From positions 354,792 to 418,791 of the forward strand of contig CAWDVO010000020.1 in the NCBI GenBank assembly GCA_963805825.1: a DNA stretch of 64,000 nt, written 5' to 3'. The notes beneath the pieces were generated by a model, which was given only the letters and a program-made list of their open reading frames with translations, did no database searches and had not been told where the DNA came from. The stretch is from Candidatus Brocadiaceae bacterium (GTDB lineage: Bacteria > Planctomycetota > Brocadiia > SM23-32). The translations under genes were made by a program, and so were the position numbers. This document shows positions 4,737 through 49,000 of the stretch, in pieces; positions within the stretch are counted from its first letter, which is position 1, and each line of letters opens with the position of its first letter.

Positions 4737-6095
4737 ATGACAGGTGCGGGCGGGCGGGCGGCGGCGGTCGGCGTGGTGTTGGCGTTGGGGCTGGTGGTGT
4801 GCGTGCGCGCGGCGGACTCGTCTTCGCCCGGCGTGGCGGGCTTCGCAGAGCAGGGCTGGCCGCAGTTCCTGGGGCCGCAGCGCGACGGCGTCGTCCATGA
4901 CGCCGGCGTCTTGGCGCGCTCGTGGCCCGAGACCGGCCCGAAGCACCTCTGGGAAACGCCGGTCGGCCCCGGCTTCGGCGGCCCCGCCATCTACGGCGAC
5001 AGCGTCCTGCTGCTGGACCGCGAGGACAACTCGCGCGACATCGTACGCCGCATCAGCCTGGCCGACGGCAGCGACATCTGGAGCTACCCCTACGACGCGC
5101 CCGGCAAGCTGGACAGCAACGGCAGCCGCGCCACGCCGGCTACGGACGGCGACCTCGTCTTCACCATCGGCCCCTTCGGCGCCATCCACGCGCTGAAGTT
5201 CAGCGACGGCACGCCCGTCTGGCACGCCGACCTGCTGAAGGACTGGGACGCGAAGCAGTCGTTCTACGGCGTTGCCGCCTCACCGCTGCTCTACGGCGAC
5301 TGGCTGATCGTCATGCCGTGGGGCACAAAGGCGGCCGTGGTTGCGCTCGACAAGAAGACGGGCGAGCAGGTCTGGGCGACGCCGAACCCGAAGGGCGTCG
5401 TGCAGGAATACGAGTCGCCGATGCTGATGCGGCTCGACGGGCAGGACATGATCCTGGCGACGGGGCGGCACGGATACCTGATCGGCGTCGACGCGAAGAC
5501 GGGCCGGCAGCTCTGGGAATACACGGGCTTCCCCAAGGTCGGCTGGCACATCCCCTCGCCGTTGCCCGTCGGCGACGGCCGCATCTTCATGACCGGCGGC
5601 TACGGCGCCGGCTGCGTCATGCTCCAGGTCGAGCGCGAGGGGCGCGGCTGGGGCGTGACCGAGCTGTTCCGCAACATGACCATGGGCAGCACCTGCGCGG
5701 AGCCGCTGCTGTGGAACGGCTTCATCTACGGTAACAGCTCCAACGTCGGCGGCGGCCTGCGGTGCGTCTCGCTGGACGGCAAGATGCAGTGGGACTCGCG
5801 CCGGAACCACGGGCCGACGTTCGACCTGGGAAGCCTGCTGATCGCGGACGGGTTGATCTACATCATCGACGGCAAGAGCGGGGACCTCGTGATGGCGGAG
5901 GCGTCGCCCGACGGCTACAAGCAACTCGGCCGCGCGCCGCTCCTGGCCCAGCCGGAGCCCTGGGCGCCGATGGCGTTCGCGGACGGCAAGCTCCTCGCCC
6001 GCGACGCGCACAAGCTCTACTGTCTGGACGTGTCGGCGGGGCGTAGCGCCGGCCTCCGGCCGGCTACCCTGGGGCGTCTCGCCCCAGGGTCTTGA
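4737..6095 (+). CDS. secreted PQQ-like (BamB-type) beta-propeller repeat protein
   Basis: Intact 452-aa ORF with GAGGAG 7 nt upstream and an N-terminal hydrophobic signal. It has repeated blade-like motifs (GDSVLLLD, GDLVFTIG, GDWLIVMP, GRIFMTGG, DGLIYIIDG, DGKLLARD). Confidence 0.6.
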   Translation: MTGAGGRAAAVGVVLALGLVVCVRAADSSSPGVAGFAEQGWPQFLGPQRDGVVHDAGVLARSWPETGPKHLWETPVGPGFGGPAIYGDSVLLLDREDNSRDIVRRISLADGSDIWSYPYDAPGKLDSNGSRATPATDGDLVFTIGPFGAIHALKFSDGTPVWHADLLKDWDAKQSFYGVAASPLLYGDWLIVMPWGTKAAVVALDKKTGEQVWATPNPKGVVQEYESPMLMRLDGQDMILATGRHGYLIGVDAKTGRQLWEYTGFPKVGWHIPSPLPVGDGRIFMTGGYGAGCVMLQVEREGRGWGVTELFRNMTMGSTCAEPLLWNGFIYGNSSNVGGGLRCVSLDGKMQWDSRRNHGPTFDLGSLLIADGLIYIIDGKSGDLVMAEASPDGYKQLGRAPLLAQPEPWAPMAFADGKLLARDAHKLYCLDVSAGRSAGLRPATLGRLAPGS

Positions 6096-15088: not shown

Positions 15089-17188
<2,100 letters not shown>

Positions 17189-17192
17189 GGCC

Positions 17193-17672
17193 TCACCCTC
17201 CCGCCCGGGCGGAGAGCTGCGCAGCGCGGCGCACCGCCTTGAGTATCTTGGGGTAGCCGCAGCAGCGGCAGAGGTTGCCGTTGAGGGCGGACAGTATCTC
17301 CTCGTCGGTGGGGTCGGGCGTGCGGCGCAGCAGGGCGACGGTGGTCAGGATCATGCCCGGCGTGCAGGAGCCGCACTGGAAGGCCCACTCGTCCAGGAAC
17401 GCCTGTTGGACGGGGTGCAGGGCGTCGCCTTCTGCGAGGCCCTCGATGGTGAGGACCTCCTTGCCGTCCGCGTCGGTGGCGGGCGTGATGCAGGAGCGGA
17501 CGGGCCGGCCGTCCAACAGCACGGTGCAGGCGCCGCATTGCCCCTCGCCGCAGCCGTACTTGGTGCCCGTCAGTTGCAGGTCCTCGCGCAGCAGGTCGAG
17601 CAGCAACCGTTCGCCGTCGACCGTGACCGTCCGTTTCCGTCCGTTCACCGTAAGGGTGATGGTCGCGTCCAT
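17193..17672 (-). CDS. (2Fe-2S)-binding small subunit of xanthine dehydrogenase/IorA family
   Basis: Intact 159-aa ORF. It has CGEGQCGACTV and QCGSCTPGMI...CRCCGY cysteine motifs for two [2Fe-2S] clusters. Confidence 0.9.
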   Translation of the reverse strand: MDATITLTVNGRKRTVTVDGERLLLDLLREDLQLTGTKYGCGEGQCGACTVLLDGRPVRSCITPATDADGKEVLTIEGLAEGDALHPVQQAFLDEWAFQCGSCTPGMILTTVALLRRTPDPTDEEILSALNGNLCRCCGYPKILKAVRRAAQLSARAGG

Positions 17673-17770
17673 GGCACGCCCTCCAGCCGAAGCCTTAGGG
17701 CCATTCTATACCGCGACCTGCGGGCGTCAAGCGTGGTGGGTGGGCCGGCGTTCGGCGGCGAGCAACCCGA

Positions 17771-18027
17771 GCTGCGGAGCAACGACAGGATAGAGCCTGG
17801 GGTGCAGGCCGTCCGCCCTATCGCGGAGGCCAAACCCCAGGTACTATGCGGTTTCTTCACGCGCCCTGTAGGGGCGCGACCGCCACGGTTGGCGGGTCGT
17901 GGGTCGCGCCCCTTCAGGGCGCATCGGGATGGCCTGTGGCTACCTGGGGTTTGTCCGTCCCGTCCGCCGTAGGCCCGGACGGAACGGCCTGTACCCCAGG
18001 CTATATCCTCGTCCGCCTCCGGCGGAC
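17771..18027. repeat. ~260-bp composite palindromic intergenic repeat, copy A (inverted relative to copies B and C)
   Basis: It contains the modules GCTGC-gga-GCAAC/GGATAGAGCCTGGGGTG, CAAACCCCAGGTA ... TACCTGGGGTTTG, GCGCCCTGTAGGGGCGCGAC ... GTCGCGCCCCTTCAGGGCGC, the 21-nt core (rc) GGGACGGACAAACCCCAGGTA, and the terminal hairpin GTCCGCCTCCGGCGGAC (18011-18027). Confidence 0.8.
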
Positions 18028-18104
18028 AGACACGGCGCAGCAAGAGTTGTCCATTGCAGCCGCCGGGAGGTATCGGTCAAGAGCGCCATTCGGCGCACGG
18101 CGAA

Positions 18105-18183
18105 CTTGTCCGGCCGTGCCCGCGCATCCACTCACACCGACTGGTACGCACGGCGGGACAAGCCCGCCGTGGCACACCGGGAC
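18105..18183. repeat. short palindromic repeat family 3 (CTTGYCCGGCCGTGCC ... GGRCAAGCCCGCNGTGGCAC), copy 1
   Basis: CTTGTCCGGCCGTGCCCGCG ... CGGCGGGACAAGCCCGCCGTGGCACACCGGGAC closely matches 35054-35146. It lies just downstream of the stop of 18200..19203 (-). Confidence 0.55.
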
Positions 18184-18199
18184 CGGGGTTGGCGTGGCG

Positions 18200-19203
18200 C
18201 TACTGCACCTTCACGATGCGTTCGGTCTTGACCGACTCGATCGCGGCGGCCAGCACCTTCTGGGCGGCCAGGCCGTCGGCGCCGGAGCCGTCGATGTCCT
18301 CGGGCGCGACGCCCGTCGTCGACCTGCTCCAGGAAGCGGTGGATGCGGTTGCGGAAGGTGTCGTCGAAGTCGCGCATGCCGCCGAAGACGGGGTTCGTGT
18401 AGACGCGTCTTCTCCAGGTTGCCGGCCGGGATAGAGCGTGGCCTCGCGCCACATGTCGTCGAGCGACGAAGCGGCCCGTCGGTGCCGGCCACCTCGCAGC
18501 GCTCCATCGGGTGGCCGCGCTCGATGTCGTAGCTGCCGGTCAGGCCGCCGACCACGCCGTTCTTGAAGCGCATGTTGAAGTGCGCGGTGGACCAGATGCT
18601 CGCGCCCCGGCGCCTTCGTGGCGAAGCACTGCACGGCCTCGATGTCGCCGCAGAAGTAGCGCATGACGTCCACCGTGTGCGGGTGCAGGGCCTTGAGCTG
18701 GAAGTAGGGCGAGCTCTCGCGCGGGTTCATGATCCACATGCGCCATGTTGATGAAGAGCAGGTGGCCGAGCCGGCCCTCGTCCACCCACTGCTTGGCCAG
18801 CCGCGCGGCCGGCGTGAAGCGGTGGTTGAGGTCGATGCCGTAGCAGCAGGCCCGTTCTCGCGCGCCGTCGCGACCATCTCCTCGGCCTGCGCGATCTCGT
18901 TGGAGATCGGCTTCTCGCCCAGCACGTGGCAGCCGGCCTCCAGCGCCTGCATGGTCGGCTCGTAGTGGTCGCTGCCGTACTCGTAGCCGCCGGTGGCCAC
19001 GCTGCAGATGTCGGGCTGCAGCGCGGCGAGCATCGTCGCGAGCGTCGTAGAACGCGGGCACGCCGAGCCGCGCCGCCGCGGCGTCGGCGCGCTCGCTGGT
19101 CGATGTCGCAGACGCCGACCAGCTCGGCCAGCTCGTCCGCCTGGTAGATGTCGGCGTGGCGGTTGCCGATCGGGCCCAGACCGATCACGCAGACTCTGAG
19201 CAT
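18200..19203 (-). pseudogene. Gfo/Idh/MocA family oxidoreductase, several frameshifts
   Basis: ATG 19203 (GGAGGG upstream) gives MLRVCVIGLGPIGNRHADIYQADELAELVGVCDID. Later segments EKPISNEIAQAEEMV, FKNGVVGGLTGSYD and ...AAAIESVKTERIVKVQ* lie in different minus frames (ORFs 18727..19413, 18540..19061, 18211..18573, 18132..18452, 18200..20638). It is a paralog of the intact 24297..25289. Confidence 0.7.
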
Positions 19204-20629
19204 GGTCCCTCCTCGGCATCCGTCCTTCGTCTGCGCGCCTTCGGCCTGCAGCTTCCGCGCGGCGCTTCGGGGTCGCCGATGTGCAGCGTGTCGTAGGCCT
19301 GCTCGGCTGGACTTGAACGGGCCGGGCCCTTCCTGCCGTGCCAGTCGAGGTTGGTGAACATCGGGTTGGTGCGGCCGGTCTCCTTCTCGCGCTGGGCGAT
19401 GCAGGCCTGCCATGCGCTCCTCCAGGCAGCGCGACCACGTCCGGCTCCTTCTTCGCCAGGTTGTCGTTCTCCTCCGGGTCGTCGATCAGGTTGTAGAGCT
19501 CGACCTCCGGCTTGAAGTGGAAGTCGGGCTCCAGCGCGAGGATCAGCTTCCACTCCGGCGTGCGCCAGCCGTGCTTGCGCATCCAGGTGCATTCGGTGAT
19601 GTAGAACTCCGGCTCGGCGTCGCGGCACTTCGCCGCTGCATCAGCGGCATCAGGCTCCGCCCGTCGAACTCGATGCTTCGTGCTGGATCGCCCAGATCCA
19701 GGAGCGTCGGCATCAGGTCCTTGTGCTGGCGTGTAGCCCGGCACGCGCAGGCCCGCCGGCACCTTCCCGGCATAGCGGAAGATCAGCGGCACGTGCAGGG
19801 TGCGGCTCGTAGATGCCGTGATGGTCGAAGTAGCAGTCGTGGTCGTAGAGCGTCTCGCCGTGGTCGCTGTTGATGACGACGATCGTGTCCTCGTCCAGCC
19901 CCAGCGCGCTACGAGCGGCGAAGATGTTCTGCGATGCAGGCGTCCATGTAGGCGACCGCGCCGTCGTACTGGGCGATGACGTAGTCCTTGTCCGTGACGC
20001 CCGGCGGCATCCAGGTGGCGAAGTAGTCGCAGAAGGGCTTGAAGGCGAAGACCGGCTCCATGGACTTGTTCGCCGGGTCGAACTCGTTGCCGTGCGTAGA
20101 ACATGCGCTCGAACGGCGCGGGCGGCAGGTAGGGCGAGTGCGGGTCCATGTGGCGCAGGAAGAGGAAGAACGGCTTGTCGCTCGCGGCCAGCCGCTTCAG
20201 CTCGGGCAGGGCGACGTCGTTGAGGTTCTCGGCCTTGTGGCTGCGGCCCTCCTCCCAGCTGCCCCAGCCGGCGAAGTCGAGGTAGTTGTCGAAGCCGCGC
20301 GAGGCGGGGTTGCCGTTGAAGCCGACGCAGGTGCTCTCGTAGCCCTGCTCGCGCAGGATCTCGGCCAGCGTCGGCACGCCCTCGGCCATCGGGCCCTTGT
20401 GGCGCAGCGCCACGATGTCCGTGCCGAAGCAGTCGCGGCCCGGTGAGCATGCGGCCGTAGCCGGAGGTGGTGGGGATGTGGGGGCTGAAGCACCGCTCGA
20501 AGGCGTGCCCTCTGCGGCGAAGTCGTCGATGTGGGGCGTGGTGAGGCGCTCGTAGCCGTAGAGGCTCATGTGGTCGGCGCGCAGGCTGTCGATGCCGATC
20601 AGGATCAGGTTCGGCTTCTTCTTGGCCAT
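19185..20629 (-). pseudogene. sulfatase-fold (alkaline phosphatase superfamily) protein A with Thr at the nucleophile position; many frameshifts, 3' end unresolved
   Basis: ATG 20629 gives MAKKKPNLILIGIDSLRADHMSLYGY, with AGGAG 9 nt upstream. Further segments are FSPHIPTTSGY..MLTG, FFLFLRHMDPHSPYLPPAPFERMFYA and ECTWMRKHGWRTPEWKLILALEPDFHFKPEVELYNLIDDPEENDNLA. The pieces are spread over ORFs 18200..20638, 19713..21338, 19185..19628 and 18727..19413. No clean stop occurs before the next gene's ATG; 19185 is the first stop in one candidate frame. Confidence 0.6.
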
Positions 20630-20671
20630 CTGTTGCATCTCCTGTAGGTGTCCGGAATGGGCGGCAAGGCG

Positions 20672-22082
20672 TCAAGCATACCCCAACGCGCGCAGTTTCT
20701 CCAGCGCGTGCGGGGCGGGCGGCGGGCGCCGAGCGGGTTGATGCGCAGGCAGTCGTACGCCTCCTGCGAGGAGCGGAACGGCCCCTGGCCGGGCAGGCTG
20801 CCGTGGGCGCGCAGGTCCGCCCGCATGGGGCTGGGGGCGCCCGTCTCGGCTTCGCGACGGGCGATCCAGTCCGCCATGCGCCTCTCCAGCAGGGCGACGA
20901 CGTCCGGCTCGTCGTGCGGCCAGGTTCGTGCGCTCCTCGGGGTCCTCGATCAGGTTGTAGAGTTCGACCTCCGGACCGAAGTGGAAGTCCGGCTCCAGGG
21001 CGTGGATCAGCTTCCACTCGGGCGTGCGCCAGCCGTGCTTGCGCATCCAGGTACACTCGGTGACGTAGAACTCCCGAGCGGGCGCGCGGCGCTCGCCCCG
21101 CAGCGCGGGCAGCAGGCTGCGGCCGTCGAAGCGCAGACCGGCGTCGACGCCCAGCACATCCAGCACCGTCGGCGTCACGTCTTGCAGCAGGCAGGCGTCC
21201 GGCACGCGCAGGCCGGCCGGCACGCGGCCCGGCATCGCGGAGCACAGGGGCACGCGCAGCACGTTGTCGTAGAGGCCGTGGTGGTCGAAGTAGCAGGCGT
21301 GCTCGCTGAAGCGACTCGCCGTGGTCGGCGGCGAGCACGATGAGCGTGTTGGCCGCCAGGCCCGAGCGCGTCCGCCAGCGTCAGCAGACCGCCCATGCAG
21401 GCGTCCATGTAGGCCACCGCGCCGTCGTACTGGGCAATGACGTAGTCGTTCGTCCGTGATCCCCGGCGGCATCCAGCCCGTGAAGTAGTCGCGGAACGGC
21501 TCGAACGCCAGCACCGGCTTCATGCTCTTGTGCGCCGGGTCGCACTCGTCCCCGGCGTAGAACATGCGGTCGAACGGCGGCGGGGGCAGGTAGGGGGAGT
21601 GCGCGTCCATGTAGCGGAGCATCAGGAAGAACGGCCGGTCGCCGTCGGCCAGGCGGCGCAGCTCGGGCAGGGCGAGCTCCGCCAGGCGTTCCGCCTTGCG
21701 CAGCGGCCGGTCCTCCCAGTCGCCCCAGCTCATGTAGTCGCGGCAGGTCTCGAACCCCTGCGCCACCGGCGGCGCGCTGAAGCCGATGCACGAGGTGGCG
21801 TAGCCCTCGGCGGAGAGCACCTGCGCAAGCGTGGGCGCGCCGACATCGCACGCGTCCCGCAGCGAGACGATGCCCGTGCCGAAGCAGTCCCGCCCGGTCA
21901 GCAAGCTGGTGAACGCGGGCGTGGTCGGGATGTGGGGGCTGAAGGCGTTCTCGAAGACGGCGCCGCCGCGTGCGAAGCGGTCGATGTGCGGCGTCGTACA
22001 GGCGGCCATAGCCGTGCAGGCCCGTGTGGTCGGCCCGCAGGCTGTCCATGACGATCATCAAGACGTTGGGGCGAGTGGGCAT
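20672..22082 (-). pseudogene. sulfatase-fold protein B (tandem paralog of A) with Thr at the nucleophile position; many frameshifts
   Basis: MPTRPNVLMIVMDSLRADHTGLHGYG (ORF 21381..22082) is followed by TPHIDRFARGGAVFENAFSPHIPTTPAFTSLLTGR...FFLMLRYMDAHSPYLPPPPFDRMFYA (ORF 20672..22009). Later pieces are AYMDACMGGLL (21175..21417) and ECTWMRKHGWRTPEWKLIHALEPDFHFGPEVELYNLIEDPEERTNLA, ending ...HALEKLRALGYA*. Confidence 0.65.
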
Positions 22083-24114: not shown

Positions 24115-24160
24115 CGTGATTCTGCCTCGTCCGGAGTGAGAATAGGTGGCACCATACCAC

Positions 24161-24270
24161 TGTCATTCGGAGGCCGCCGCAGGGCGGCCGAAGAATCCGG
24201 TCGTCTGGAGATGCGCATACCCCCAACGGAGAGATTCCTCGGCGCTAAGGAAACGCGCCTCGGAATGACA
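24161..24270. repeat. ~110-bp TIR-bounded MITE-like palindromic element, copy 1 (inverted relative to copies 2 and 3)
   Basis: TGTCATTCGGAGGCCGCC...GAGATTCCTCGGCGC..CGCGCCTCGGAATGACA. The outer stem TGTCATTC(C)GAGG/CCTCGGAATGACA and an inner stem GAGGAATC/GATTCCTC are shared with 28812-28924 and 35666-35774. Confidence 0.8.
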
Positions 24271-25289: not shown

Positions 25290-25826
25290 GCATCTTCTCC
25301 GCAAGGGTTTGCCACCGTTAGCCGAACGGCTCTTCGCTGTTCGCCGAATCCGCGTAAGGATAGCGCGCCCGGAGGCGGTTGTCACCTGGAAACGGTCGAA
25401 CCTCCCCGCGGCGCGGCCTTCCAGGCCGCATTGCCGGGGCATCCTGCCCGTACGTGTGGGGCCGGCCGCTTCCCGTAGGGCAAGGAGGCCGTAGTCCCGG
25501 AGGGACGATTGAAGGGCGGGTCCATCGAGGCCTGGAGAGATGCGTACCCCTCAGCCGTGCCTCCGGCACTCGATAGATAGGGGACCGCTCTCATACCCAG
25601 CGCTGAAGCGCTGGGCTACTCTCAAGTCTCCCTCCGGGAGACGCTCTGGGTCGCTTCCGATTCCTGGCTGGCCAGGAAGAGTGCTCCTGCCCGGGTCAAC
25701 CGCGGCAGAGCATCGTCGTTGGAGCCCGACGCAGCGGACCGGCGCTGCAGCCGGCCGAAGTCAGCGGCAGGGCGTTACAGGCCTTTAGTGCCACTTCGCA
25801 ATGTCCACATCTGGCCTCGTTTCCTT

Positions 25827-26093
25827 CCCGCCGGAGGCGGGTGAGGACATAGCCTGGGGTGCCGGGCGGCTCGTCCGCCGTACGGCGGACGGGACGGACA
25901 AACCCCAGGTAACCAGGCGACAACGCGACGCGCCCTGTAGGGGCGCGACCCCGCGGCGGGCCTCTGAAGCTTTGGTGAGGGGGTTGCGCCCCTACAGGGC
26001 GCAGGAGAACCTGAACCATGACCTGGCGGTTGGCCGTCCGCCATGCGGCGGACGCCCCGCACCCCAGGCTACATCCTTCCGCTGCTCCGCAGC
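25827..26093. repeat. ~260-bp composite palindromic intergenic repeat, copy B
   Basis: In order: CCCGCCGGAGGCGGG hairpin, ATAGCCTGGGGTGCC, GGGACGGACAAACCCCAGGTAACC, GCGCCCTGTAGGGGCGCGAC ... TTGCGCCCCTACAGGGCGC, CACCCCAGGCTACATCC, and the GCTGCTCCGCAGC hairpin. The module order matches copy C. Confidence 0.8.
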
Positions 26094-26238
26094 TTTAAGC
26101 GTATAGGCCGGACGTGCCGCGCGCCCGCCGGAGAACATGACAGAGCAGCCTCGGGCAAGGCAGGCGGCGCTGGAAGCACCGCCACTGCGGGCAGGCCCAT
26201 CCTGAGCGCAGCCGAAGGGATGCCCGCGCCACTGCTGC

Positions 26239-28811: not shown

Positions 28812-28924
28812 TGTCATTCCGAGGCGCTCTTCCTTGGCGCCGAGGAATCTCCGTCGGAACGATCGTCGACGGTCTCCGGCATCGAGATTCCTCGGCGCGG
28901 CCCGGCGGCGGCCTCGGAATGACA
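28812..28924. repeat. ~110-bp TIR-bounded MITE-like palindromic element, copy 2
   Basis: The element reads TGTCATTCCGAGGCGCTCTTCCTTGGCGCCGAGGAATCTC [central CCGTCG..CGACGG hairpin] GAGATTCCTCGGCGCGGCCCGGCGGCGGCCTCGGAATGACA. It lies between the stop of 28946..31182 and the start of 27315..28767, both on the same strand. Confidence 0.85.
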
Positions 28925-32401: not shown

Positions 32402-32450
32402 GGTGTCTCCTGATGCTGCGCTGTCGACCTCGCTCACGGTCGCCGGGCCT

Positions 32451-32835
32451 GTCCGCCGGAGGCGGACAAGAATGCAGCCTGGGGTGCCGACCGGCCCGTC
32501 CACCGTAAGGCGGGCGGGACGGACAAACCCCAGGTAACCATGCGGCTACGTAGTGCGCCCTGTAGGGGCGCCACCACCGTCCTCCATGTGCAGCGGTCGC
32601 GCCCCTTCAGGGCGCGGAACGTGCTGCTGACGCATACCTGGGGTTTGGTCGCCTTCGGCGCCCTGCACCCCAGGCTGTATCCTTTCGCTGCTTCGCAGCT
32701 ACAGCGGCCCGGCCGCGCTGCGACGCCGGCTCCGAACCGGATCTCTTCACCGCTTCGCTGCTATAGTGGCCCGACCACACTGCAGTGCCGACCCCAGGCT
32801 ATACCCTATGGCCGCTTCCCAGCTACAGCGGCCCT
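32451..32835. repeat. ~260-bp composite palindromic intergenic repeat, copy C, with extra duplicated tail modules
   Basis: In order: GTCCGCCGGAGGCGGAC hairpin, GCAGCCTGGGGTGCC, GGGACGGACAAACCCCAGGTAACC, GCGCCCTGTAGGGGCGCC ... GTCGCGCCCCTTCAGGGCGC, TACCTGGGGTTTGG, CACCCCAGGCTGTATCC and GCTGCTTCGCAGC. Additional partial tail copies follow (CGCTTCGCTGCTATAGTGGCC; CCCCAGGCTATACCC..CCCAGCTACAGCGGCC). Confidence 0.8.
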
Positions 32836-32878
32836 ACCACACGGCAATGCGGGCCGCAAGCCTCACTGGCAGAGCAGC

Positions 32879-33643
32879 CTAACCCGTCTCCTCAACGATG
32901 GCCACCGCGCGCGTCCAGCCGGCGGAGGCGTTCTCGAACTTGACCGGGAACGCGCAGACCGTGAAGCCGGTCGGGGCCGGCAACTGGTCCAGGTTCGCCA
33001 TCTTCTCTATCTGCAGGTATTCGCGCTCGCGGCCGTAGAGGTGCGAGGGCCAGAGGGCGTTGCAGTCGCCGGCGCGGTAGCTCTCGCCCATCGCCGCCGC
33101 CGGCCGGTCCAGGCCCCAGGCGTCGATGCCGATCACGCGCACGCCGCGGTCGAGTATCCACTTCGTGGCGGCCAATCCGAGGCCGGGCTGACGGGCGAGG
33201 TACTCCGGCGTGTCCCAGAACTTGTCCGCCCCGGTCTGGATCAGGACGATGTCCCCGGCCTGCAGCTCGTGGCCGATCTTCTCCAGCGCGCCCTCAACGT
33301 CCTCGACCGTGATTTCGGAGCCCGGCTCCTTGTGGCGCATGTCGAGCACCACGCCCGGCCCGTAGCACCACTCCAGCGGCACCCGGTCGATGGTGCGCGC
33401 GGGCCGGCCCTCGCTGGTGGGGCCGTAGTGCCAGGGCGCGTCGACGTGCGTGCCGCTGTGCGCCGAGCCGCTGATCTGGTCGGAGGCGAGGGCCAGGCCG
33501 TCCTTGAAGTCGGAGGCCGCCACGCCGGCCAGGCGCGAGAGGCGGCGGGCGCCCTCGCGGTGGTCCGTGTGCGCGAGCGTGGGCGGATACGGCTCGCTGG
33601 CGAAGTTCTGGTGCGGCAGGCTCAGGTCAATGATCCGGGGCAT
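32879..33643 (-). CDS. cyclase family protein (kynurenine/aryl formamidase-like, PF04199-type)
   Basis: Intact 254-aa ORF. It has the HSGTHVDAPWH motif and VRVIGIDAWGLD. Its start overlaps the upstream 2Fe-2S gene by 17 nt. Confidence 0.8.
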   Translation of the reverse strand: MPRIIDLSLPHQNFASEPYPPTLAHTDHREGARRLSRLAGVAASDFKDGLALASDQISGSAHSGTHVDAPWHYGPTSEGRPARTIDRVPLEWCYGPGVVLDMRHKEPGSEITVEDVEGALEKIGHELQAGDIVLIQTGADKFWDTPEYLARQPGLGLAATKWILDRGVRVIGIDAWGLDRPAAAMGESYRAGDCNALWPSHLYGREREYLQIEKMANLDQLPAPTGFTVCAFPVKFENASAGWTRAVAIVEETG

Positions 33644-34121
33644 CGGGGGTCCCTTCCAGGCGTTCGGCCGCGTCCAGCACGGCCGCTATGATGCGGGTGT
33701 AGCCGGTGCAGCGGCAGAGGTTGCCGCAGAGCGCCTCCGCGACCTCGTCGGTCGTGGGGCGGGGGGTCGCCATGAGCAACGCTTTCGCGGACATAATCAT
33801 GCCGGGCGTGCAGAATCCGCACTGGACGGCGCCGGCGTCGATGAAGGCCTGCTGGAGGACGTCTAACTGTCCGTCGGGCGCCAGACCCTCGATGGTCAGC
33901 ACCTCGCAGCCGTCGGCTTCGGCCGCCAGCATCAGACAGGAGTTGACGGCGCGGCCGTCGACGATGACGGTGCAGGCCCCGCACTCGCCCTCGCCGCAGC
34001 TCTCCTTGGCACCGGTCAGCAGCAGGCGGTCGCGCAGCAGCTTGAGGAGCGTCTCCTGCGGCGCGACCTCCAGCGCGTGCTCGCGGCCGTTGACGGTGAT
34101 CGTGACGGGGATCGGGTTCAT
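33627..34121 (-). CDS. (2Fe-2S)-binding small subunit (CoxS-like) of xanthine dehydrogenase family enzyme
   Basis: Intact 164-aa ORF with CGEGECGACTV and QCGFCTPGMI...CRCTGY. It has a 4-nt overlap with the upstream FAD subunit gene. Confidence 0.9.
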   Translation of the reverse strand: MNPIPVTITVNGREHALEVAPQETLLKLLRDRLLLTGAKESCGEGECGACTVIVDGRAVNSCLMLAAEADGCEVLTIEGLAPDGQLDVLQQAFIDAGAVQCGFCTPGMIMSAKALLMATPRPTTDEVAEALCGNLCRCTGYTRIIAAVLDAAERLEGTPDAPDH

Positions 34122-35220: not shown

Positions 35221-35737
35221 ATGGCGAACCGGCGCAACGGGCGAAGGGGTGGGCCGAAGACGGCGGAGGGGAAGGCCGTCAGCCGCCTCAACGCGCGTAA
35301 GCACGGCGTGCTCACGACCTTGCCTGTGGACGAGGATCTGGCAGAACTGCGCGAGATCTACGAGGGGTTCGCCGAGGACGCGCGGCCGGTGGGTGCGGGG
35401 GAGGAGTTCCTGATCGGCGAGCTGGCCCGCGTGTCACCTGGCCCAGCGGCGCTGTGCGAGGGCCGAGGCCGAGCACTACCGGCGCTCGGCCGAGAAAGGC
35501 ACCCGGTTCAGTGACGCGTTCGGGCGCTCGACCGAGACGTTCGGCCGTTACGACCGCACGCTCGCCAACCGGTTCGTCCGGCTGCTGCACGAAGTGGAGC
35601 GGCTGCAGGACCTCCGACGGAGCCGGGCTTCGACCCTCAGAACGATGCAGAGCGTTTGCGCGTCCTGTCATTCCGAGGCGCTTCTCCTTGGCGCCGAGGA
35701 ATCTCAATCGCACGATCGCCGACGGTCGCGGCATTGA
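35221..35737 (+). pseudogene. small basic hypothetical protein (MANRRNGRRGGPKTAEGKAVSRLNARKHG... type), one frameshift near 35435; 3' end runs into MITE copy 3
   Basis: ATG 35221 lies inside track ORF 35191..35514 (TTG start). After ...EEFLIGELARV a plausible continuation (..LAQRRCARAEAEHYRRSAEKGTRFSDAFGRSTETFGRYDRTLANRFVRLLHEVERLQDLRR...) lies in another frame. Its first stop (35735-35737) is inside the repeat element. Confidence 0.4.
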
Positions 35738-35774
35738 GATCCCTCGGCCGCCCTGAGGCGGCCTCGGGATGACA
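35666..35774. repeat. ~110-bp TIR-bounded MITE-like palindromic element, copy 3
   Basis: The element reads TGTCATTCCGAGGCGCTTCTCCTTGGCGCCGAGGAATCTC ... GAGATCCCTCGGCCGCCCTGAGGCGGCCTCGGGATGACA. It has the same orientation and architecture as copy 2. Confidence 0.85.
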
Positions 35775-40032: not shown

Positions 40033-43000
40033 ATGAAGTGGTATGTACGCGTCGCCCTCCTCCTTGTCCTGCTTGCCGGCACGTCATCCGCCAACGAATA
40101 CGCCTGGCGCGAGGCGGAAAGCGCGACCGCCACCAGCTTCAACCACCATAGCTGGTACCAGAACGGCGACGCCAACAACGTGATCGACAAGACGCTGATG
40201 TCTCCGGGCGTGCCGGCCAGTCCAGGCCGGCGATTGGCGGGCGCACTATGCCAGCGGCAGCACGTCGGCCTACATCGAGTGGAACAACATCAACGTCACC
40301 GAGGGCGGCACCTACACATGGTGGGCGCGCGTTGCGCCGTTCAACTCGGCCTACCGGTACTCGGTCGACGGCGGCGCCGGCACCAGCGTGGACCTGGGCC
40401 AGCAGCATGAGGTCCTGAACGTCATCGAGCCGGGCATCAACAACGTCCATTACCTCGGCTGGGTGAAGCTGGGGAACATCAGCCTGACGCCCGGCACGCA
40501 CACGCTGCGCATAACGGCCGTCGCCTATGGCGACCACGTCTTCGGCGCGGTCGACTGCACGTGCATCGTCAACTTCCCCTGGTCGCCGACCGGCGCCATC
40601 CAGCCGCCCGGCAGCTCGACGAACCCCGACCCCACGCCCGGCGCGGGCATCTGGTTCGCCCTGCACGTGGCGGACGACGCCTTCAGCGCGGACTCCATCA
40701 CCGACATGCGCGACGTGCTGGCCGCCACCACAGGCGTGCCGGCCGGCAGCAAGGGCTACGTGAAGCGCGTGGAGGACCGCTTCGAGCTGAGCGGCGAGCC
40801 CGGCGTGCCCATCAAGTTCTGGGGCCTGACCGCCGTGCACCCGGACTACACCTCGACCTTCCAGCAGCAGGCCCGCTTCTACGCCAAGCACGGCGTGAAC
40901 ATCGTCCGCCGCCACCCCATGATCAGCGAGGTCGGGACCGGGCAGACCAACTGGGACGCCTACGACCGGTGGTTCAAGGCGCTCAAGGACAACGGCATCT
41001 ACAGCGACTGGTCCGTCTTCTATCCGGACAGCGTGGCCGTGAGCCGCAGCTTCCTGCCGACCACGCCGGACGCCGGCTTCCAGGCGTTGCTGACGGGCGC
41101 CGGCGTCACGGCGGACCAGCTCTGGAACGAGCTGCCCGCCAACGGCAGCAGCCGCTACCTCGGCGGCTTCGACAACTTCGTGCAGTGGTACCAGCAGGGC
41201 CAGTGGAACTGGGAGAACACCCTCCTGCAGCACGTCAACCCCTACACGGGCATCGCCTATGTGGACGACCCGGCCCTGGCCATCGTCGAGGTGCAGAACG
41301 AGGACAACGTCTTCTGGCACTGGCCGCTGGGCGACGGCTTCTGCAACGGCAGCCAGTATCCGAACCACCACAAGCTGCTGGTCTACATGTGGTTCAAGTG
41401 GCTGCAGGCCCAGCTACGCGGACGACGCGGCGCTGAAGGCCGCCTGGGGGACGGTTGGATGAACGGGCGACAGCGTCGTCACCTTCAACCCCAGCATGAA
41501 GATATACGCCGCCTGGGAGATGTACGCGACCGCAGCCTTTCACCGGCGCGAACGACAAGGCCCGCATGGGGGACTGGGTCCGCTTCCTGTCTGAGACGCA
41601 GCGGGCCCACTACGAGACGCGCTTCGACAACGTGCGCGCCATCGGCTTCCAGGGCGTGCAGGTCAGCACGGGCTGGCAGGCCGGCGGCCCGTCCGCTGCG
41701 GCCGCCAACGGCTGGGCCGACGACGCCGGCGACGCCATCGACCACCACGTCTACATGGGCGGCGGCGCAGGGCGGCTGACTACGTCTCCACCGGCTCGGT
41801 CAGCAACGCGAGCCAGCTCTCCGACCCCGGCAACTTCCTCCTGGCCGTCAAGCGCAGCGGCACCGGCTCCAGCGGCAGCGCGCCTTACGAGTCCGTCTTC
41901 CAGATCGAGGACAAGCCGGCCATCGTGACGGAGTGGGCCAACAGCATGCCCAACCAGTGGCGGGCGGAGTCGTTGCCCATGTTCGCCTTCTACGGCATGG
42001 GCTTGCAGGGCTGGGACGGCTCGTTCAACTTCGCCGGCTCCACCCCGTGGATGGAGACCGGCTGGCCGGGCCACGGCAGGGGCCCGGGCACCTGGGTCGC
42101 CGAGACGCCCGTGAAAATGGCCCAGTTCCCTGCCGTGGCCCGCGCCGTCTACAAGGCTACATCCAGCAGGGCGCGCCGGCCGCGCGCGGCGCATGTCGGT
42201 GGACGACTTGTTCCGCGGCATCGACCCGCTCAGCCAGGCCCTGCCCGGCGGCAGCTATCCCGGGCACGTCCAACCTGATGACGCCCTCGGAGGTCAACGC
42301 CATCGGCCGCGTCACGATGAAGGCCGACAGCTCGCTCAGTTCCTCCGACTCCGTCAAGGTCGACTGGAACTCCTACTGGGACCAGACCAACAAGATCATC
42401 ACCAGCACGACCGGCCAGCTCGTCTGGAACTACAACCAGCAGGTCGTGCAGGTGAAGGCCCCGTCGACGCAGGGCCTCATCGGCCGGGCCGGCGGCAAGG
42501 GGACCTACAACCTGGGTGACGTGCAGGTGAACGTCAACTCGGGCACCCCGTTCTGCAGCCTCCTGTTCACCCCGCTCGACGGCCAGCCGCTCAGCACCTC
42601 CGCCCACATCCTGGTCACCGCCCTCGCCCAGGACAAGCAGATGGGCACCGTCTACGGCTCCGGCGGCACCACGCTGACCACCCTCGGCGGCCCGCCGCTG
42701 CTGCTGCAGCCCGTCCAGGCCACCGTCACCGTCGGCGGCAGCCCCGTCGGCATCCGTGGACGTGGTGGACATCTACGGCGTGCCGACCGGCGTGCAGGTG
42801 CCCGTCGCCGCCAACAGCTTCACCATCAACGGCAACTACACCACCGTCTACTACCAGATCAACCGCGCGCCGGGCGGCACGCCGACCATCGGCGACCGCC
42901 CCGCCTCGCTGAGCCCCTCCTGCATCCAGGGCAACAGCCCCTCGAACGCCAGCCTGCAAGTGTGGAGCGACGGCACCGCCCCATCAGCTACACCGTCTCC

Positions 43001-46000
43001 GATGACGCCGCCTGGCTGTTCGTCACCCCGTCCGGCGGCACCTCACGGACAGCGGTGACGAGCAGACCATACCGTCACCTACAACGCCGCCGGCCTCACG
43101 GCGGGCACCTACAACGCAACGTCACCGTCAGCGACCCCGCGCCAGCAACGATCCGGCACGATCCCCGTAACGCTGACGGTGAGGCGCCGCCCGCCATCGC
43201 CCTGAGCACCACCTCGCTGAGCCCCTCCTGCGTGCAGGGCAGCGCCCCGGCGGGCGACAGCTTCCAGGTCTGGGACAGCGGCGGCGGCGCCCTCAACTAC
43301 ACCATCTCCAACAATGCGACTGGCTGATCGTCAACCCCACCAGCGGGACCTCGACGGGCAGCGGGGACAAGAAGACCCACACGGTCAGCTACAATGCGGC
43401 CGGCCTGTCCCCCGGCGTCTACAACGCGCACCATCACTGTCAGCGACCCGGGCGCAGCAACGACCCGCGGTCTCACGGTGACGTTGACGGTGAGGCGCCC
43501 CGGCCATCGCCCTGAGCACGGCACGCTCAGCCCCGCCTGCTCGCAGGGCTCCAGCCCGGCGGACGCCACTTTCCAGGTGTGGGACACCGGCGGGGCGGCC
43601 CTCGACTACACGGTCGCCGATGACGTGGGCTGGCGTCAGCGTCAGCCTGTCCAGCGGGAGTTCGACGGGGACGCGCGACAAGCAGACCCATACCGTGACC
43701 TACGCCCGGCGGGCTGACCGCGGGGACTTACACGGGCCACATCACCGTCACCGACCCGAGCGCGAGCAACACCCGCAGATGATCCCGGTGAGCCTGACCG
43801 TCTCGACGGCGCCGGCCATCGCCGTGAGCACGACGACCTGAGCCCGACCGTGACCGTCGGCCAGAACGCGGCCGACGACGGCTTCCAGGTCTGGGAAGCG
43901 GCGGGCGGGATGCTCAGCTACACCGTTGCCGATGACGCAGCATGGTTGAGGTGGCGCCGTCCAGCGGGACCTCGACCGGCAGCGGCGACAAGAAGTCCCA
44001 CACCGTCAGCTACACCACTCGGGCCTGAGCGCGGGCACTACACGGGCCATATCAGCGTGACGGACGCGGCGGCGACCAACAGTCCGCAGACGATCACCGT
44101 GAGCCTGACGGTGCAGGCGGCGCCGGCCATCGCCCTGGACAAGACGACGCTGAGCCCGACGGTGACGGTGGGCCAGGATGCCGCCGACGGCACGTTCCAG
44201 GTCTGGAACAGCGGGCGACGTGGCGACTCGACCTACACGGTCGCCGACGACGCGGCGTGGCTGTCGGTCGATCCCGACGAGCGGAAGCTCGACGGGCAGC
44301 GGCGACAAGCACTCGCACACAGTGAGCTACGACACGAGCGCCCTGGGCGCGGGCACCTACACAGGCCACATCAGTGTGACTGATGCTACCGCGAGCAACA
44401 GCCCGCAGACGATCACGGTGAGCCTGACCGTGCAGACGGCAGCCGCCATCGCTCTCGACAAGACAACGCTGGGCCCCACCGTCACCGTGGGCCAGGACGC
44501 GGTGGATGACACATTCCAGGTATGGGACACGGGCGAGACCGCGCTGGACTACACCGTCACCGACGACGCAGCATGGCTCTCAGTCGCCCCGGCTTCCGGT
44601 ACGTCGACGGGCAGCGGCGACAAGCAGTCCCATACGGTCAGCTACGACACGAGCGGTCTGGCGCGCCGGCACTTACACGGGCCACATCAACGTCGCGGAC
44701 GCCGCCGCGAGCAACAGCCCGCAGACGATCACGGTGAGCCTGACCGTGCAGACCGCCGCAGCGATCGCTCTCGACAAGACGACGCTCAGCCCGACGGTCA
44801 CGGTGGGGCAGGATGCAGCGGACGATACCTTCCAGGTCTGGGATACCGGAGACGTAGCCCTCGACTACACCGTCACCGATGACGTTGCCTGGCTGAGCGT
44901 AGCGCCGACCAGCGGCACGTCGAGTGGGGCGGGCGACAAGCAGTCGCACACCGTGAGCTACGATACGAGCGGCCTGAGCGCGGGTACCTACACGGGCCAC
45001 ATCAGCGTGGCGGATCCCTCCGCCAGCAACACACCGCAGAGCATCACGGTCAGCCTGACGGTGCAGACGGCTGCGGCCATCGCTCTCGACAAGACCACGC
45101 TGAGCCCGACGGTCACCGTGGGGCAGGATGCAGCGGACGACACGTTCCAGGTGTGGGATACCGGAGACGTAGCGCTCGACTACACCGTCGCGGATGATGT
45201 TGCCTGGCTGAGCGTGGCGCCAACGAGCGGGTCGTCGACCGGCAGCGGCGACAAGCAGTCGCACACGGTCAGCTACGACACCAGCGCCCTGAGCGCCGGC
45301 ACGTACACGGGCCACATCAGCGTCGCGGACGCCGCGGCCAGCAACAGCCCACAGACGATCACCGTGAGCCTGACCGTGCAGACGGCTGCGGCCATCGCTC
45401 TCGACAAGACCACGCTGAGCCCGACGGTCACCGTGGGCCAGGATGCGGCGGATGACAGCTTCCAGGTGTGGGACACGGGCGACGTGGCGCTGGACTACAC
45501 CGTGACGGACGACGCGGCATGGCTGTCCGTCGCACCCGCATCGGGCACGTCAACCGGGAGCGAGCGACAAGCAATCCCATACGGTCAGCTACGATACCAG
45601 CGGCCTGACGGCCGGCACCTACACCGGTCACATCAGCGTGACCGACGCGTCCGCGAGCAACAGCCCGCAGGCTATCACCGTGAGCCTCACCGTACAGACT
45701 GCCCCGGTCATCGCCCTGGACAAGGCCGCCCTGAGCCCCACAGTCGTTGTGGGCCAGGATGCAGCGGATGACACCTTCCAGGTGTGGGACACGGGCGACG
45801 TGGCGCTCAACTATACGGTAACCGACGACGCGGCCTGGCTCTCCGTCAGCCCCGCGAGTGGAAGCTCGACAGGCGCAAGCGACAAGCAATCTCACACCGT
45901 CAGCTACGACACGAGCGGACTGGCGGCCGGCACGTACACGGGCCACATCAGCGTCGCGGACGCCGCCGCCGGCAACAGCCCGCAGACGATCACCGTGAGC

Positions 46001-49000
46001 CTGACCGTGCAGACGGCCGCGGCCATCGCCCTGGACAAGACGACGTTGACCCCGACGGTCACCGTCGGCCAGGATGCGTCGGACGACAGTTTCCATGTCT
46101 GGGACACCGGGGACGTTGCTCTGAGCTACACAGTCACCGACGACGCGCCGTGGCTGAGCGTGACGCCGACCAGCGGGAGTTCCACTGGCGCGGCCGACAA
46201 GCAGGCCCACACCGTCAGCTACACGACGAGCGGCCTGAGCGCCGGGACCTATACCGGCCACATCAGCGTCGCGGACGCGTCGGCGAGCAACAGCCCGCAG
46301 ACCATCACCGTCAGCCTGACCGTGCAAACGGCGGCAGCGATCGCGCTGGATAGGACAACGCTCAGCCCGACCGTGACCGTTGGGCAGGATGCGGCCGACG
46401 ACAGCTTCCAGGTGTGGGACACTGGTGACGTTGCCCTCAACTACACGGTGACCGATGACGCGGCGTGGCTGAGCGTTGCGCCGGCCAGCGGCACGTCAAC
46501 GGGGAGCGGAGACAAGCAGACTCATACGGTGAGCTACGACACCAGCGGCCTGACTGCAGGGACTTACACGGGCCACATCACCGCGGCTGATGCTGCCGCG
46601 AGCAACACCCCGCAGACGATCACGGTGAGCCTGACCGTGCAGACGGCGCCGGCGATTGCGCTGGACAGGACTACTCTCAGTCCGACGGCAACCGTTGGGC
46701 AGGACGCGGCGGACGATAGCTTCCAGGTGTGGGACACCGGCGATGTGCAGCTCATCTACACCGTTGCGGATGATGCCTCCTGGCTGAGCGTAGAGCCTGC
46801 CAGCGGGACCTCCACCGGGACGAGCGACAAGAAGTCGCACACCGTCAGCTACACGACGTCGGGCCTGAGCGCCGGCACGTACACGGGCCACATCAACGTG
46901 ACTGACGCCGCTGCGAGCAACAGCCCTCAGACGATCACGGTCAGCCTGACCGTGCAGACGGCTCCGGCCATCGCCCTGGACAAGACGACGCTGAGCCCGA
47001 CGGTCACCGTGGGGCAGGATGCGGCCGACGACTCCTTCCTGGTCTGGGACACGGGCGACGTGCAGCTCAACTACACGGTGGCCGATGACGCTGCCTGGCT
47101 CTCCGTCAGCCCGGCCTCCGGCACATCGACCGGCGGCAGCGACAAGCAATCGCACACCGTCAGCTACGACACGAGCGGCCTGTCCGCCGGCACCTACACG
47201 GGCCACGTCACCGTGGCCGACGCGTCCGCGAGCAACAGCCCGCAGACGATCACCGTCAGCCTGACGGTGCAGACGGCCGCGGCCATCGCGCTGGACAAGA
47301 CTACGCTGAGTCCGACGGTGGGCGTGGGCAATGATGCCGGGGACGACACGTTCCAGGTGTGGGACACGGGCGATGTCCAGCTCGACTACACCGTCACCGA
47401 TGATGTGCCCTGGCTGAGCGTAGCGCCGACCAGCGGGACGTCGACCGGGACGGCTGACAAGCACTCCCACACGGTCAGCTACACGACGAGCGGCCTGACG
47501 GCCGGCACCTACACCGGCCACATCAGTGTCGCCGATCCGGGCGCGAGCAACACGCCGCAGACCATCACGGTCAGCCTGACCGTGCAGACCGCGGCGGCCA
47601 TCGCCCTCGACAAGACAACGCTGAGCCCGACCGTTACGGTGGGCCAGAACGCCGGCGACGACAGCTTCCAGGTATGGGACACCGGCGGGACCACGCTCAG
47701 CTACACCGTCTCCGACGATGTCGGCTGGCTCAGCGTCGCGCCTACCAGCGGGACGTCGACGGGAACGAGCGACAAGCAATCCCACACGGTCAGCTACGAC
47801 ACGAACGCCTTGGCAGCAGGCACGTACACGGGCCACATCAACGTTACGGATGCCGCCGCGAGCAACAGCCCGCAGACGGTCACCGTCAGCCTGACAGTGC
47901 AGACGGTCGCAGCCATTGCGCTGGACAAGACCACCCTGAGCCCGACGGTCACCGTCGGCCAGGACGCCTCGGACGACAGCTTCCAGGTGTGGGACACGGG
48001 TGACGTTGCCCTCAACTACACCGTCACGGACGACGCGGCCTGGCTGAGCGTCACCCCGACCAGCGGGACATCGACGGGAACGAGCGACAAGCAATCCCAC
48101 ACGGTCAGCTACAACACAAGCGCGTTGACCGCTGGCACCTACACCGGCCACATCACCGTGACGGACGCGTCCGCGAGCAACAACCCGCAGACGATCACCG
48201 TCAGTCTGACCGTGCAGACAGCCGCGGCCATCGCCCTCGACAAGACGACCCTCAGTCCCACGGTGACGGTCGGCCAGGACGCGACGGACGACACGTTCGA
48301 GGTCTGGGACACGGGCGACGTGCAGCTCAACTACACGGTGGCCGATGACGCGACCTGGCTCTCCGTCAGCCCCGCGAGCGGCAGCTCGACGGGTGCAAGC
48401 GACAAACAGACGCACACCGTCAGCTACGACACGAGCGGGCTGACTGCGGGAACCTACACCGGCCACATTAGCGTGGCCGATGCTGCTGCGAGCAACAGCC
48501 CGCAGGCGATCACCGTCAACCTGACGGTGCGAACCGCTGCAGCCATCGCTCTGGACAAGACCACGCTCAGCCCAACGGTTACGGTGGGCCAGAACGCTGC
48601 CGACGACGCGTTCCAGGTCTGGGACACCGGGGAGACAACCCTCAACTACACGGTGTCCGACGACGCAAGCTGGCTGAGCGTCACTCCGACCGGCGGGACG
48701 TCGACCGGGACGGCTGACAAGCAGTCGCACACGGTCAGCTACGACACGAGTGGGCTCACAGCCGGCGCCTACACCGGCCACATCAGCGTCGCGGACGCAT
48801 CCGCCAGCAACAGCCCGCAGACGATTACGGTCAGCCTGACGGTGCAAACGTCGGCCGGCATCGCGCTGGACAAGACCACGCTGAGTCCCACGGTGACGGT
48901 CGGCCAGGACGGGACGGACGACACCTTCCAGGTGTGGGACACCGGTGACGTTGCCCTCAACTACACCGTCATGGACGACGTGGCATGGCTGAGCGTGACG

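Follow-up and report, generated by a model that had tools for sequence, protein, structure and literature searches.

Intergenic inverted doublets of an Acido-Lenti-1-type unit in a Candidatus Brocadiaceae genome and their probable relation to Y1 transposase elements

Three intergenic copies of an inverted doublet

The DNA analysed here, hereafter the window, is a stretch of 64,000 nucleotides (64 kb) from a Candidatus Brocadiaceae bacterium of the Planctomycetota (assembly GCA_963805825.1, contig CAWDVO010000020.1, positions 354,792 to 418,791), with positions counted from its first letter. It carries a palindromic repeat in three copies (n=3), designated A (17764-18037), B (25821-26100) and C (32446-32706; all refined limits), and all three are intergenic. 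Copy A has two minus-strand genes as its neighbours, one for a sulfatase/oxidoreductase and one for a [2Fe-2S] subunit, and copy B separates divergent GFO/IDH/MocA and URO-D-like genes. Copy C occupies the junction of two minus-strand genes inside a gene string for Mo-hydroxylase subunits; the insertion at this locus falls precisely into the gap that separates the stop codon of a PF04199 cyclase gene (32879-32881) from the ribosome-binding site (RBS; GGAGA, 32406-32410) and ATG (32401-32399) of an HMGL-like gene, leaving the RBS intact. No promoter- or terminator-like consensus was found in copy C. An integron attC site was also considered at this junction and rejected, as the GTTAGGC at the cyclase stop is a chance 7-mer with neither R''/L'' architecture nor a cassette open reading frame (ORF).

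When copy A is reverse-complemented, the three copies can be aligned over about 280 nt with a mean column identity of 81%. The window contains exactly three occurrences of the 21-mer core GGGACGGACAAACCCCAGGTA (minus strand at 17941-17961, then 25891-25911 and 32516-32536); this core was never met in 100 shuffles, even with three mismatches allowed, and the palindrome GCGCCCTGNAGGGGCGC occurs six times against an expectation of 0.09. The arms of all copies were recovered independently by a general repeat search of the window, the G+C content of which is 69.7%. Folding predicts a single long nested hairpin for each copy, far more stable than shuffled sequence (copy B as RNA, -183 kcal/mol, z -8.7; copy C with its tail, z -7.9; copy A as DNA, z -8.6). 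The original prediction, made from the sequence without database searches, had placed a composite repeat at 17771-18027, 25827-26093 and 32451-32835, with an ordered set of modules, a core identical in all copies and inverted in A, and the capacity to fold into one nested hairpin, copy C being set in a co-directional gene string; each of these points is borne out. The extra tail modules that it assigned to copy C are also present, as degenerate partial units that are not part of the doublet.

Every copy consists of two three-hairpin units of about 105-140 nt, which form a doublet in inverted orientation. Read 5' to 3', the unit consists of hairpin 3 (hp3), about 22 nt ending in TA, hairpin 1 (hp1), CT with a linker of about 10 nt (CTATATCC..) and hairpin 2 (hp2). 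The hp3 sequence is GCGCCCCTNCAGGGCGC (layout GCGCCCC-TNC-AGGGCGC), and hp1 has the arms CCTGGGGT...ACCCCAGG, or with its feet TA-CCNNNNNN..NNNNNNGG-CT (TA-CCTGGGG..CCCCAGG-CT). The outermost hairpin of the doublet is hp2, with a stem of 5-7 bp and a loop of 3 nt, and the two hp3 hairpins face inward across a spacer of 27-39 nt. The window copies have an additional hairpin of the GTCCGCC..GGCGGAC type (20-41 nt) set into hp1, and the 21-mer core is one flank of this expanded hp1. All three copies join the same two half types, one with the hp2 GTCCGCC-TCC-GGCGGAC and the longer hp1 insert, the other with the hp2 GCTGC-TYC-GCAGC. That this left/right asymmetry (hp2 identity, hp1 insert) is common to A, B and C shows that the whole doublet spread together and that all three go back to one master copy.

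The half-units were delimited with R1, a covariance model built from 50 units of other organisms (other phyla) together with one stand-alone unit of the window. The model recovers six of six half-units at 47.5-70.9 bits, aligned end to end, as three -/+ pairs. Copy A comprises a minus-strand half at 17764-17890 (hp2 GTTGCTCCGCAGC; 56.8 bits) and a plus-strand half at 17893-18032 (hp2 GTCCGCCTCCGGCGGAC; 59.5 bits), the hp1 loop of the latter holding the inserted CGTCCGCC..GGACG hairpin and the core. The minus-strand half of copy B at 25821-25959 (hp2 CCCGCCTCCGGCGGG; 47.5 bits) has the expanded hp1 with the core and is followed by a plus-strand half at 25973-26100 (hp2 GCTGCTCCGCAGC; 50.2 bits). 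Copy C repeats this arrangement, with a minus-strand half at 32446-32584 (hp2 GTCCGCCTCCGGCGGAC, expanded hp1 and core; 60.1 bits) and a plus-strand half at 32586-32706 (hp2 GCTGCTTCGCAGC; 70.9 bits). Its central hp3 pair, GCGCCCTGTAGGGGCGC / GCGCCCCTTCAGGGCGC, spans 32555-32615 with a 27-nt spacer and has equivalents at 17861-17922 in A and 25930-26002 in B. The stand-alone unit, on the plus strand at 25542-25647, scores 58.3 bits as a member of the training set of R1.

Locus C extends beyond its doublet on both sides, with a 38-nt left extension (32412-32445) and, at 32707-32878, a tail in which two to three degenerate partial units can be read from the sequence. These tail units consist of an hp2-like hairpin with an extension of about 30 nt, and one partial hp1 (CCCCAGGCT) lies at 32792-32800. 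A nested insertion, in which an inner element would sit within the loop of an outer hairpin, was considered for the copies and dropped, as relatives show two units with a bona fide Acido-Lenti-1 motif (see below) on each side.

Long spurious ORFs start in or cross the copies (32540-33691, 17846-18532 and 17019-17972, all on the plus strand), with peptides such as ...APCRGAT...RPFRA...TWGL..., and gene callers may list them as hypothetical proteins. Reading-frame switches also occur inside many obvious genes, e.g. near 31953 in the HMGL-like gene (32401->31186), near 29130 in the Mo-hydroxylase large subunit, in the sulfatases at 18200-22082 and at 4860-6044; at position 31953, related strains in three metagenomes are one base shorter. 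These switches suggest an error-prone (long-read) assembly, widespread pseudogenes being less likely, and small indel differences between the repeat copies are therefore to be read with caution.

Acido-Lenti-1 and Y1 transposase genes

The hp1-linker-hp2 part of the unit is the Rfam motif Acido-Lenti-1 (RF01687), a candidate small RNA (sRNA) of unknown function according to its authors, with a published seed that was already multi-copy and often tandem and in which Lentisphaera, Koribacter, Rhodopirellula baltica and Geobacter are represented (Weinberg et al. 2010, PMC2864571). The layout of that motif, namely an 8-bp hairpin 1, a GGCUA-type linker of about 12 nt, a 5-bp hairpin 2 with a 3-nt loop and then U, is found in every outer half-unit. 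The window unit differs from it in exceeding the 46-nt motif, in its conserved upstream hp3 and in its mainly inverted doublets; furthermore, its sRNA classification in Rfam contrasts with its behaviour here, which is that of a transposase-element end.

The Rfam model gives the halves of A, B and C 17.4 bits (17770-17808, minus strand), 21.1 bits (26063-26094) and 26.6 bits (32662-32700), respectively, or leaves them unreported. These values lie below the gathering score of 37 because hp1 carries the inserted hairpin; the cmscan alignments place the linker and hp2 correctly and skip the long hp1 insert. The sole match in the window at gathering score falls in the stand-alone unit (25596-25641, 37.7 bits), 190 nt upstream of copy B. 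Thus, A, B and C are in the Acido-Lenti-1 family by architecture and outside its Rfam score cut-off. Matches to miRNA and snoRNA families at relaxed E-values were discarded as generic long-hairpin noise.

A pattern scan for hp1 and hp3 located 33 stretches (L001-L033) in metagenome-assembled genomes (MAGs) labelled Deltaproteobacteria, Verrucomicrobiota, Myxococcota, Syntrophobacteraceae or unclassified bacteria. In three of these MAGs (Zod_Metabat.807 and those of L018 and L031), labelled Deltaproteobacteria, Myxococcales and Syntrophobacteraceae, an inverted pair of RF01687 matches (37.8-52.8 bits) surrounds two GCGCCCTGNAGGGGCGC hairpins; other MAGs carry the unit singly or as tandem arrays. 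A scan with the Koribacter-type hp1 added at least 120 further loci, mainly from Acidobacteriota and Planctomycetaceae, in which close unit pairs are predominantly -/+ (44, against seven +/- and five direct). The exact 21-mer core had no match in GTDB species representatives, and its 19-mer version had one true match in JGI metagenomes (contig L117), the other four being chance matches in low-GC contigs. Some of the tandem arrays (L009 1940-2440; L029 7113-7567; L006/L011/L021/L026) consist of units or only of linker and hp2, repeated about every 68, 85 or 171 nt; where the period is 68 nt, successive units share a GCGCCCCTTCAGGGCGC hairpin, which is hp2 for the first and hp3 for the second.

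In relatives, the same units adjoin genes for Y1 transposases, a link that came to light only with the Koribacter-type loci and the scan from the protein side described below. Two wide -/+ pairs enclose Y1_Tnp genes (L236, 71.9 bits; L220, 63.7 bits), and tblastn found five more Y1 homologues, each adjoining units (L149, L238, L133, L136 and L009), of which L009 carries the CCTGGGG/GCGCCC unit type of the window itself. The Y1 genes between or beside units match PF01797 (Y1_Tnp) and NF033573. At L236, hp3 hairpins directly bracket the Y1 gene, the stop codon of which lies inside the hp3 loop. At L136 (6280-6794), inverted units enclose a Y1 gene with an internal deletion, which represents a decay intermediate.

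The association was also examined from the protein side. At least 594 homologous stretches were found in species-representative genomes, and the best 80 loci, chosen only by Y1 clade, were kept. With R1, a unit in the canonical orientation adjoins the Y1 gene at 71 of the 80 loci, and units pointing outward stand on both sides at 52 of them. In the canonical layout, a (-) unit lies upstream at a median gap of 15 nt and a (+) unit downstream at a median gap of 4 nt; units of the opposite orientation adjoin the gene at only four loci upstream and seven downstream. The Rfam Acido-Lenti-1 model itself flanks the Y1 gene at gathering score in three cases (L239, from Terriglobus albidus DSM 26559, L250 and L243). 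The canonical adjacency at 71/80 loci thus marks the three-hairpin unit as the conserved end of this Y1 element. Full elements consist of two modules facing outward from a transposase gene of about 145 aa, which occupies the position held in the window by the central hp3 pair; the window copies share this layout but lack the gene. In the literature searched, RF01687 was nowhere found described as marking Y1 element ends.

Two claims of the original prediction change in this light. It could match the repeat to no named family, and an Rfam search now identifies the outer module of every half as an expanded RF01687 (sub-threshold in A, B and C, at 37.7 bits in the stand-alone unit); nor is the family wholly new, since IS200-like Y1 transposase elements have this complete unit as their conserved end. 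Its remark that no transposase lies nearby agrees with the tblastn search, which detected no Y1 homologue in the 64-kb window, other transposase types not having been searched for systematically.

Presence and absence in related strains, and competing readings

Logan contigs from salt-marsh and mangrove metagenomes (X1-X4) represent related strains in which the DNA at loci B and C is missing; such contigs reveal presence better than absence. At locus C, contigs with the same operon lack a block of 467 bp (32412-32878), with joints 32411->32889 (X4, 'AT' between) and 32411->32898 (X2, 17 nt between), and the cyclase stop TAG is directly followed by GAGACACC-ATG of the HMGL-like gene. The tail, which lies within the inserted block, is absent along with the doublet. 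At locus B, 707 bp (25450-26156) are absent (joint 25449->26157, 20 nt between, X4), in agreement with loose ends in X1 and X3. This block is divergent intergenic DNA filled with repeats (the stand-alone unit, copy B and other hairpins). For copy A no empty site was found, only a shorter variant with a single unit. As a side observation, 25450-25541 and 25648-25820 contain further small hairpins, e.g. the GTAG-tagged GTAGTCCCGGAGGGAC at about 25491-25506, and form a mosaic of repeat types.

The cyclase/HMGL-like junction is a tight 18 nt in the distant relative L036 and holds unrelated DNA in two other lineages, L034 (6759-6952, about 195 nt) and L035 (6751-7257, about 505 nt); foreign DNA seems to have landed there repeatedly. 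The A/B/C family is not present at the orthologous junction in any of these three. A near-identical B-type left half stands in another flank in L117, and many metagenome contigs cease to match at the same points (25823-25828 and 26094/26095 around copy B, 32700 in copy C) and continue heterogeneously, which indicates sharp element ends. The left boundary of copy B (about 25823-25828) is backed by both L117 and the loose ends of contigs, and its right boundary (26094/26095) by the loose ends. No target-site duplication was found at A, B, C or the L117 flanks; across the three to four flanks compared, with multi-element blocks at B and C, duplication was lacking and a common target sequence was not definable.

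The best account of these observations, with a probability of roughly three in four, is that each copy pairs two end modules of a Y1 (HUH) IS200/IS605 element in inverted orientation and lacks the gene, i.e. is DNA resembling miniature inverted-repeat transposable elements (MITEs) or doublets of repetitive extragenic palindromes (REPs), known as REPINs, which is moved in trans by a Y1 transposase. A cognate transposase encoded elsewhere in this genome would recognise the hairpins of the doublet, which would be cut and rejoined as single-stranded DNA in the manner of REP/REPIN, bacterial interspersed mosaic elements (BIMEs) and miniature elements derived from IS200/IS605. Such cutting and rejoining would leave no target-site duplication. 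Copies would then accumulate in intergenic 'junkyards' and inside one another, and insertions into operons would be tolerated where the RBS is spared. The doublet at locus C may also affect expression of its operon. What is observed directly is the anatomy of unit and doublet, the homology of the unit across phyla, its adjacency to Y1 genes and the polymorphism at loci B and C; a cognate gene in this genome, its action on the doublets and an effect on the operon are inferred.

It further appears fairly probable that the 46-nt 'sRNA' Acido-Lenti-1 is part of the roughly 105-nt, three-hairpin end of a distinct cross-phylum Y1 element (Acidobacteriota, Planctomycetota, Verrucomicrobiota, some Desulfobacterota and Myxococcota). 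The element would encode an IS200-like Y---Q--HH transposase of a group so far described without structured ends, and its gene-less doublets would form a REPIN-like superfamily lacking the GTAG foot. The window copies would be a lineage-specific derivative, with hairpins nested in hp1, that has recently invaded operon junctions.

Several points weigh against the transposition of gene-less doublets in trans. Apart from the missing Y1 gene in the window, no transposase enrichment was seen among the 116 genes neighbouring L001-L033, judged on the 25 most frequent of 90 families, so that single DDE genes could be missed. The Y1 proteins resemble classical IS200 TnpA (PDB 2fyx, 2xm3, 2a6m) more than the REP-associated tyrosine transposase (RAYT) of E. 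coli, and the GTAG/GTGG foot of REPs is absent at the unit ends, the conserved feet being TA-CC...GG-CT at hp1. E-values of R1 (1.8e-11 for the half-unit at 17764-17890) are rough, and the many indel-like frameshifts of the assembly may blur fine details of the copies. The strains compared at the empty sites are about 88-95% identical to the window, and the polarity of insertion versus deletion rests on the outgroup L036; deletion in the relatives at B and C is possible. Moreover, the missing blocks of 467 and 707 bp exceed one doublet, and single-step insertion of a doublet is thus not seen directly. All the same, the three rival readings that follow are weaker than transposition in trans.

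A structured RNA is the strongest of these, and an unlikely one. On this reading, the units would be sRNA genes or cis-elements and the doublet hairpins would regulate or stabilise transcripts, for example as barriers to 3' exonucleases or as processing sites at locus C. Such a role would suit the curation of RF01687 as an sRNA with covariation, the very stable folds and the position of A and C inside co-directional gene strings, where they would be transcribed; in addition, the REPs of E. coli affect mRNA stability. Compensatory change is strong in all three stems, with both sides altered in 18 of 22 base pairs (75 distinct units). Two-sided changes number 187 cells, against 51 in shuffles and far fewer in slid controls, which implies that the hairpins have been selected; this result counts for transposition in trans as well as for an RNA. 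Against an RNA, G-U pairs are rare (20 cells, about 1.3%) and no commoner than A-C mismatches (32, with a further 57 at the hp3 closing pair), and this strand test gave no signal for the Acido-Lenti-1 strand. Orientation of the units relative to neighbouring genes is mixed and without bias, the inverted doublet is the dominant form, and the operons read A and C in opposite senses. Copy C lacks a terminator- or promoter-like consensus, entire blocks are dispensable in related strains, and the units are the physical ends of a transposase gene. A palindrome acting at the DNA level is a better fit to the low G-U count, the mixed orientation and the opposite reading of A and C than a strand-specific RNA, and it may have secondary effects on mRNA. 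The original prediction had left open a MITE/REP-like element or a structured RNA; the first description stands in that the repeat is multi-copy, intergenic and palindromic, and the second is disfavoured by orientation, G-U frequency, polymorphism and the link to transposases.

It is decidedly improbable that the copies are immobile relics, kept and multiplied only by recombination, slippage and gene conversion (a BIME-like 'junkyard') in a lineage without an active transposase. The tandem duplications of partial units in the C tail and in the L009 and L029 arrays, the multi-element nature of the missing blocks and the lack of a Y1 gene in the window would all suit such a history. It sits poorly with the near-identical B-type copies in different flanks, with the sharp shared ends and heterogeneous continuations in several metagenomes, and with three copies of about 81% identity at unrelated loci within 15 kb.

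Least probable is a DDE-type MITE, with terminal inverted repeats (TIRs) recognised as double-stranded DNA and target-site duplication on insertion. In its favour, the copies are multiple and intergenic, each forming an imperfect inverted repeat as long as 260-280 bp, and a weak 11-nt inverted repeat (GCTGCGCTGTC / GGCAGAGCAGC) bounds the 467-bp block at C. Against it, direct repeats are lacking around A, B and C, the ends are not simple TIRs but hairpins whose loops and feet are conserved, no transposase family recurs among the 116 neighbouring ORFs (within the limits given above), and Y1/HUH transposase is the only protein consistently associated with the units.

Known systems and other repeats of the window

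The ends of IS200/IS605 elements are hairpins on the same strand and not mutual inverted repeats; here, in contrast, both ends are inverted copies of one module. Palindrome-associated transposable elements (PATEs) and other miniature elements derived from IS200/IS605 are gene-less but retain the structured ends of a Y1 transposon on both sides, and the internally deleted intermediate at L136 resembles this situation. REP/REPIN-RAYT systems, reportedly treated by Ton-Hoang et al. in 2012, offer a further comparison. The window copies share with these systems and with BIMEs short palindromic units, joined by a short spacer into inverted doublets that form one long hairpin, and a clustered, mosaic, intergenic distribution without target duplication (Bertels & Rainey 2011, PMC3116915; Di Nocera et al. 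2013, PMC3733652). A single HUH/Y1 gene flanked by the same units is also the plan of a REPtron. The window unit differs from a REP in having three hairpins over about 105 nt instead of 20-40 nt, and the associated protein differs from RAYT in scoring as IS200-type TnpA (NF033573) with Y---Q--HH, not the class 2 RAYT signature.

Further comparisons are the TIRtrons/TIRYT of Acidobacteria (Di Nocera et al. 2013, PMC3733652), which the element resembles, and TnpAY1 subclass 1.2 / class 3 (Quentin et al. 2018, PMC6006769). In Acidobacteria and Planctomycetes, Y1 genes have long, inverted, structured repeats on their flanks, and these can themselves be repeat families (PMC3733652, PMC6006769). A TIRtron-like arrangement, with a unit directly on both sides of the Y1 gene and hp2 outermost, is that of the 52/80 relatives. 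The Y1 proteins found here carry the motifs DHVH, WQ and Y---Q--HH and a conserved C-terminal tail, which constitute the signature of TnpAY1 subclass 1.2 (Quentin et al. 2018, PMC6006769), and these motifs suggest membership of that subclass. Its members are generally without terminal secondary structures and mostly cyanobacterial or from Bacteroidetes (Quentin et al. 2018, PMC6006769), whereas the present loci have structured ends in 71/80 cases and hosts that are mainly Acidobacteriota and members of the Planctomycetes-Verrucomicrobia-Chlamydiae (PVC) group.

For annotation, copies A, B and C and their spurious ORFs are to be masked as repeats and not called genes or sRNAs. What RF01687 describes appears to be a mobile-element end, and the type 'Gene; sRNA' of this entry deserves review. 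If the interpretation is correct, an IS200-like Y1 clade that has REPtron-like, structured and inverted ends, and whose doublets without the gene abound in PVC bacteria and Acidobacteriota, would bridge classical IS200 elements and REP/RAYT systems, and would offer a tractable pair of enzyme and substrate, e.g. in Terriglobus albidus DSM 26559. Operon junctions at which strains differ in the presence or absence of the repeat blocks can serve as strain markers and as natural experiments on operon polarity. The finding in the window is in itself fairly ordinary repeat biology; specialists may be interested in the reinterpretation of an Rfam sRNA as the terminus of a transposon and in the finding that this Y1 clade has structured ends.

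Other repeats also occur in the window. A second, unrelated family at 24160-24270, 28812-28851 and 35666-35774 consists of TGTC-tagged palindromes with stems starting in AT (TGTCATTCCGAGGCGC...GCGCCGAGGAATCTC); two of the loci have head-to-head dimers and the third has one unit. This second family resembles the CGTC/TGTC-tagged REP superfamily (Di Nocera et al. 2013, PMC3733652). At 44029-50634, mostly within a giant ORF (45638-51985), lie 21 tandem repeats of 315 nt that are 60-86% identical to a reference copy and encode an array of BACON/Ig-like domains of about 105 aa each. This BACON-repeat gene is flanked by diverged inverted arms (41163-42819 and 56673-58252; 74-77% complementary), which are probably paralogous genes in opposite orientation; an ORF in one of the arms has a weak match to Glyco_hydro_42.

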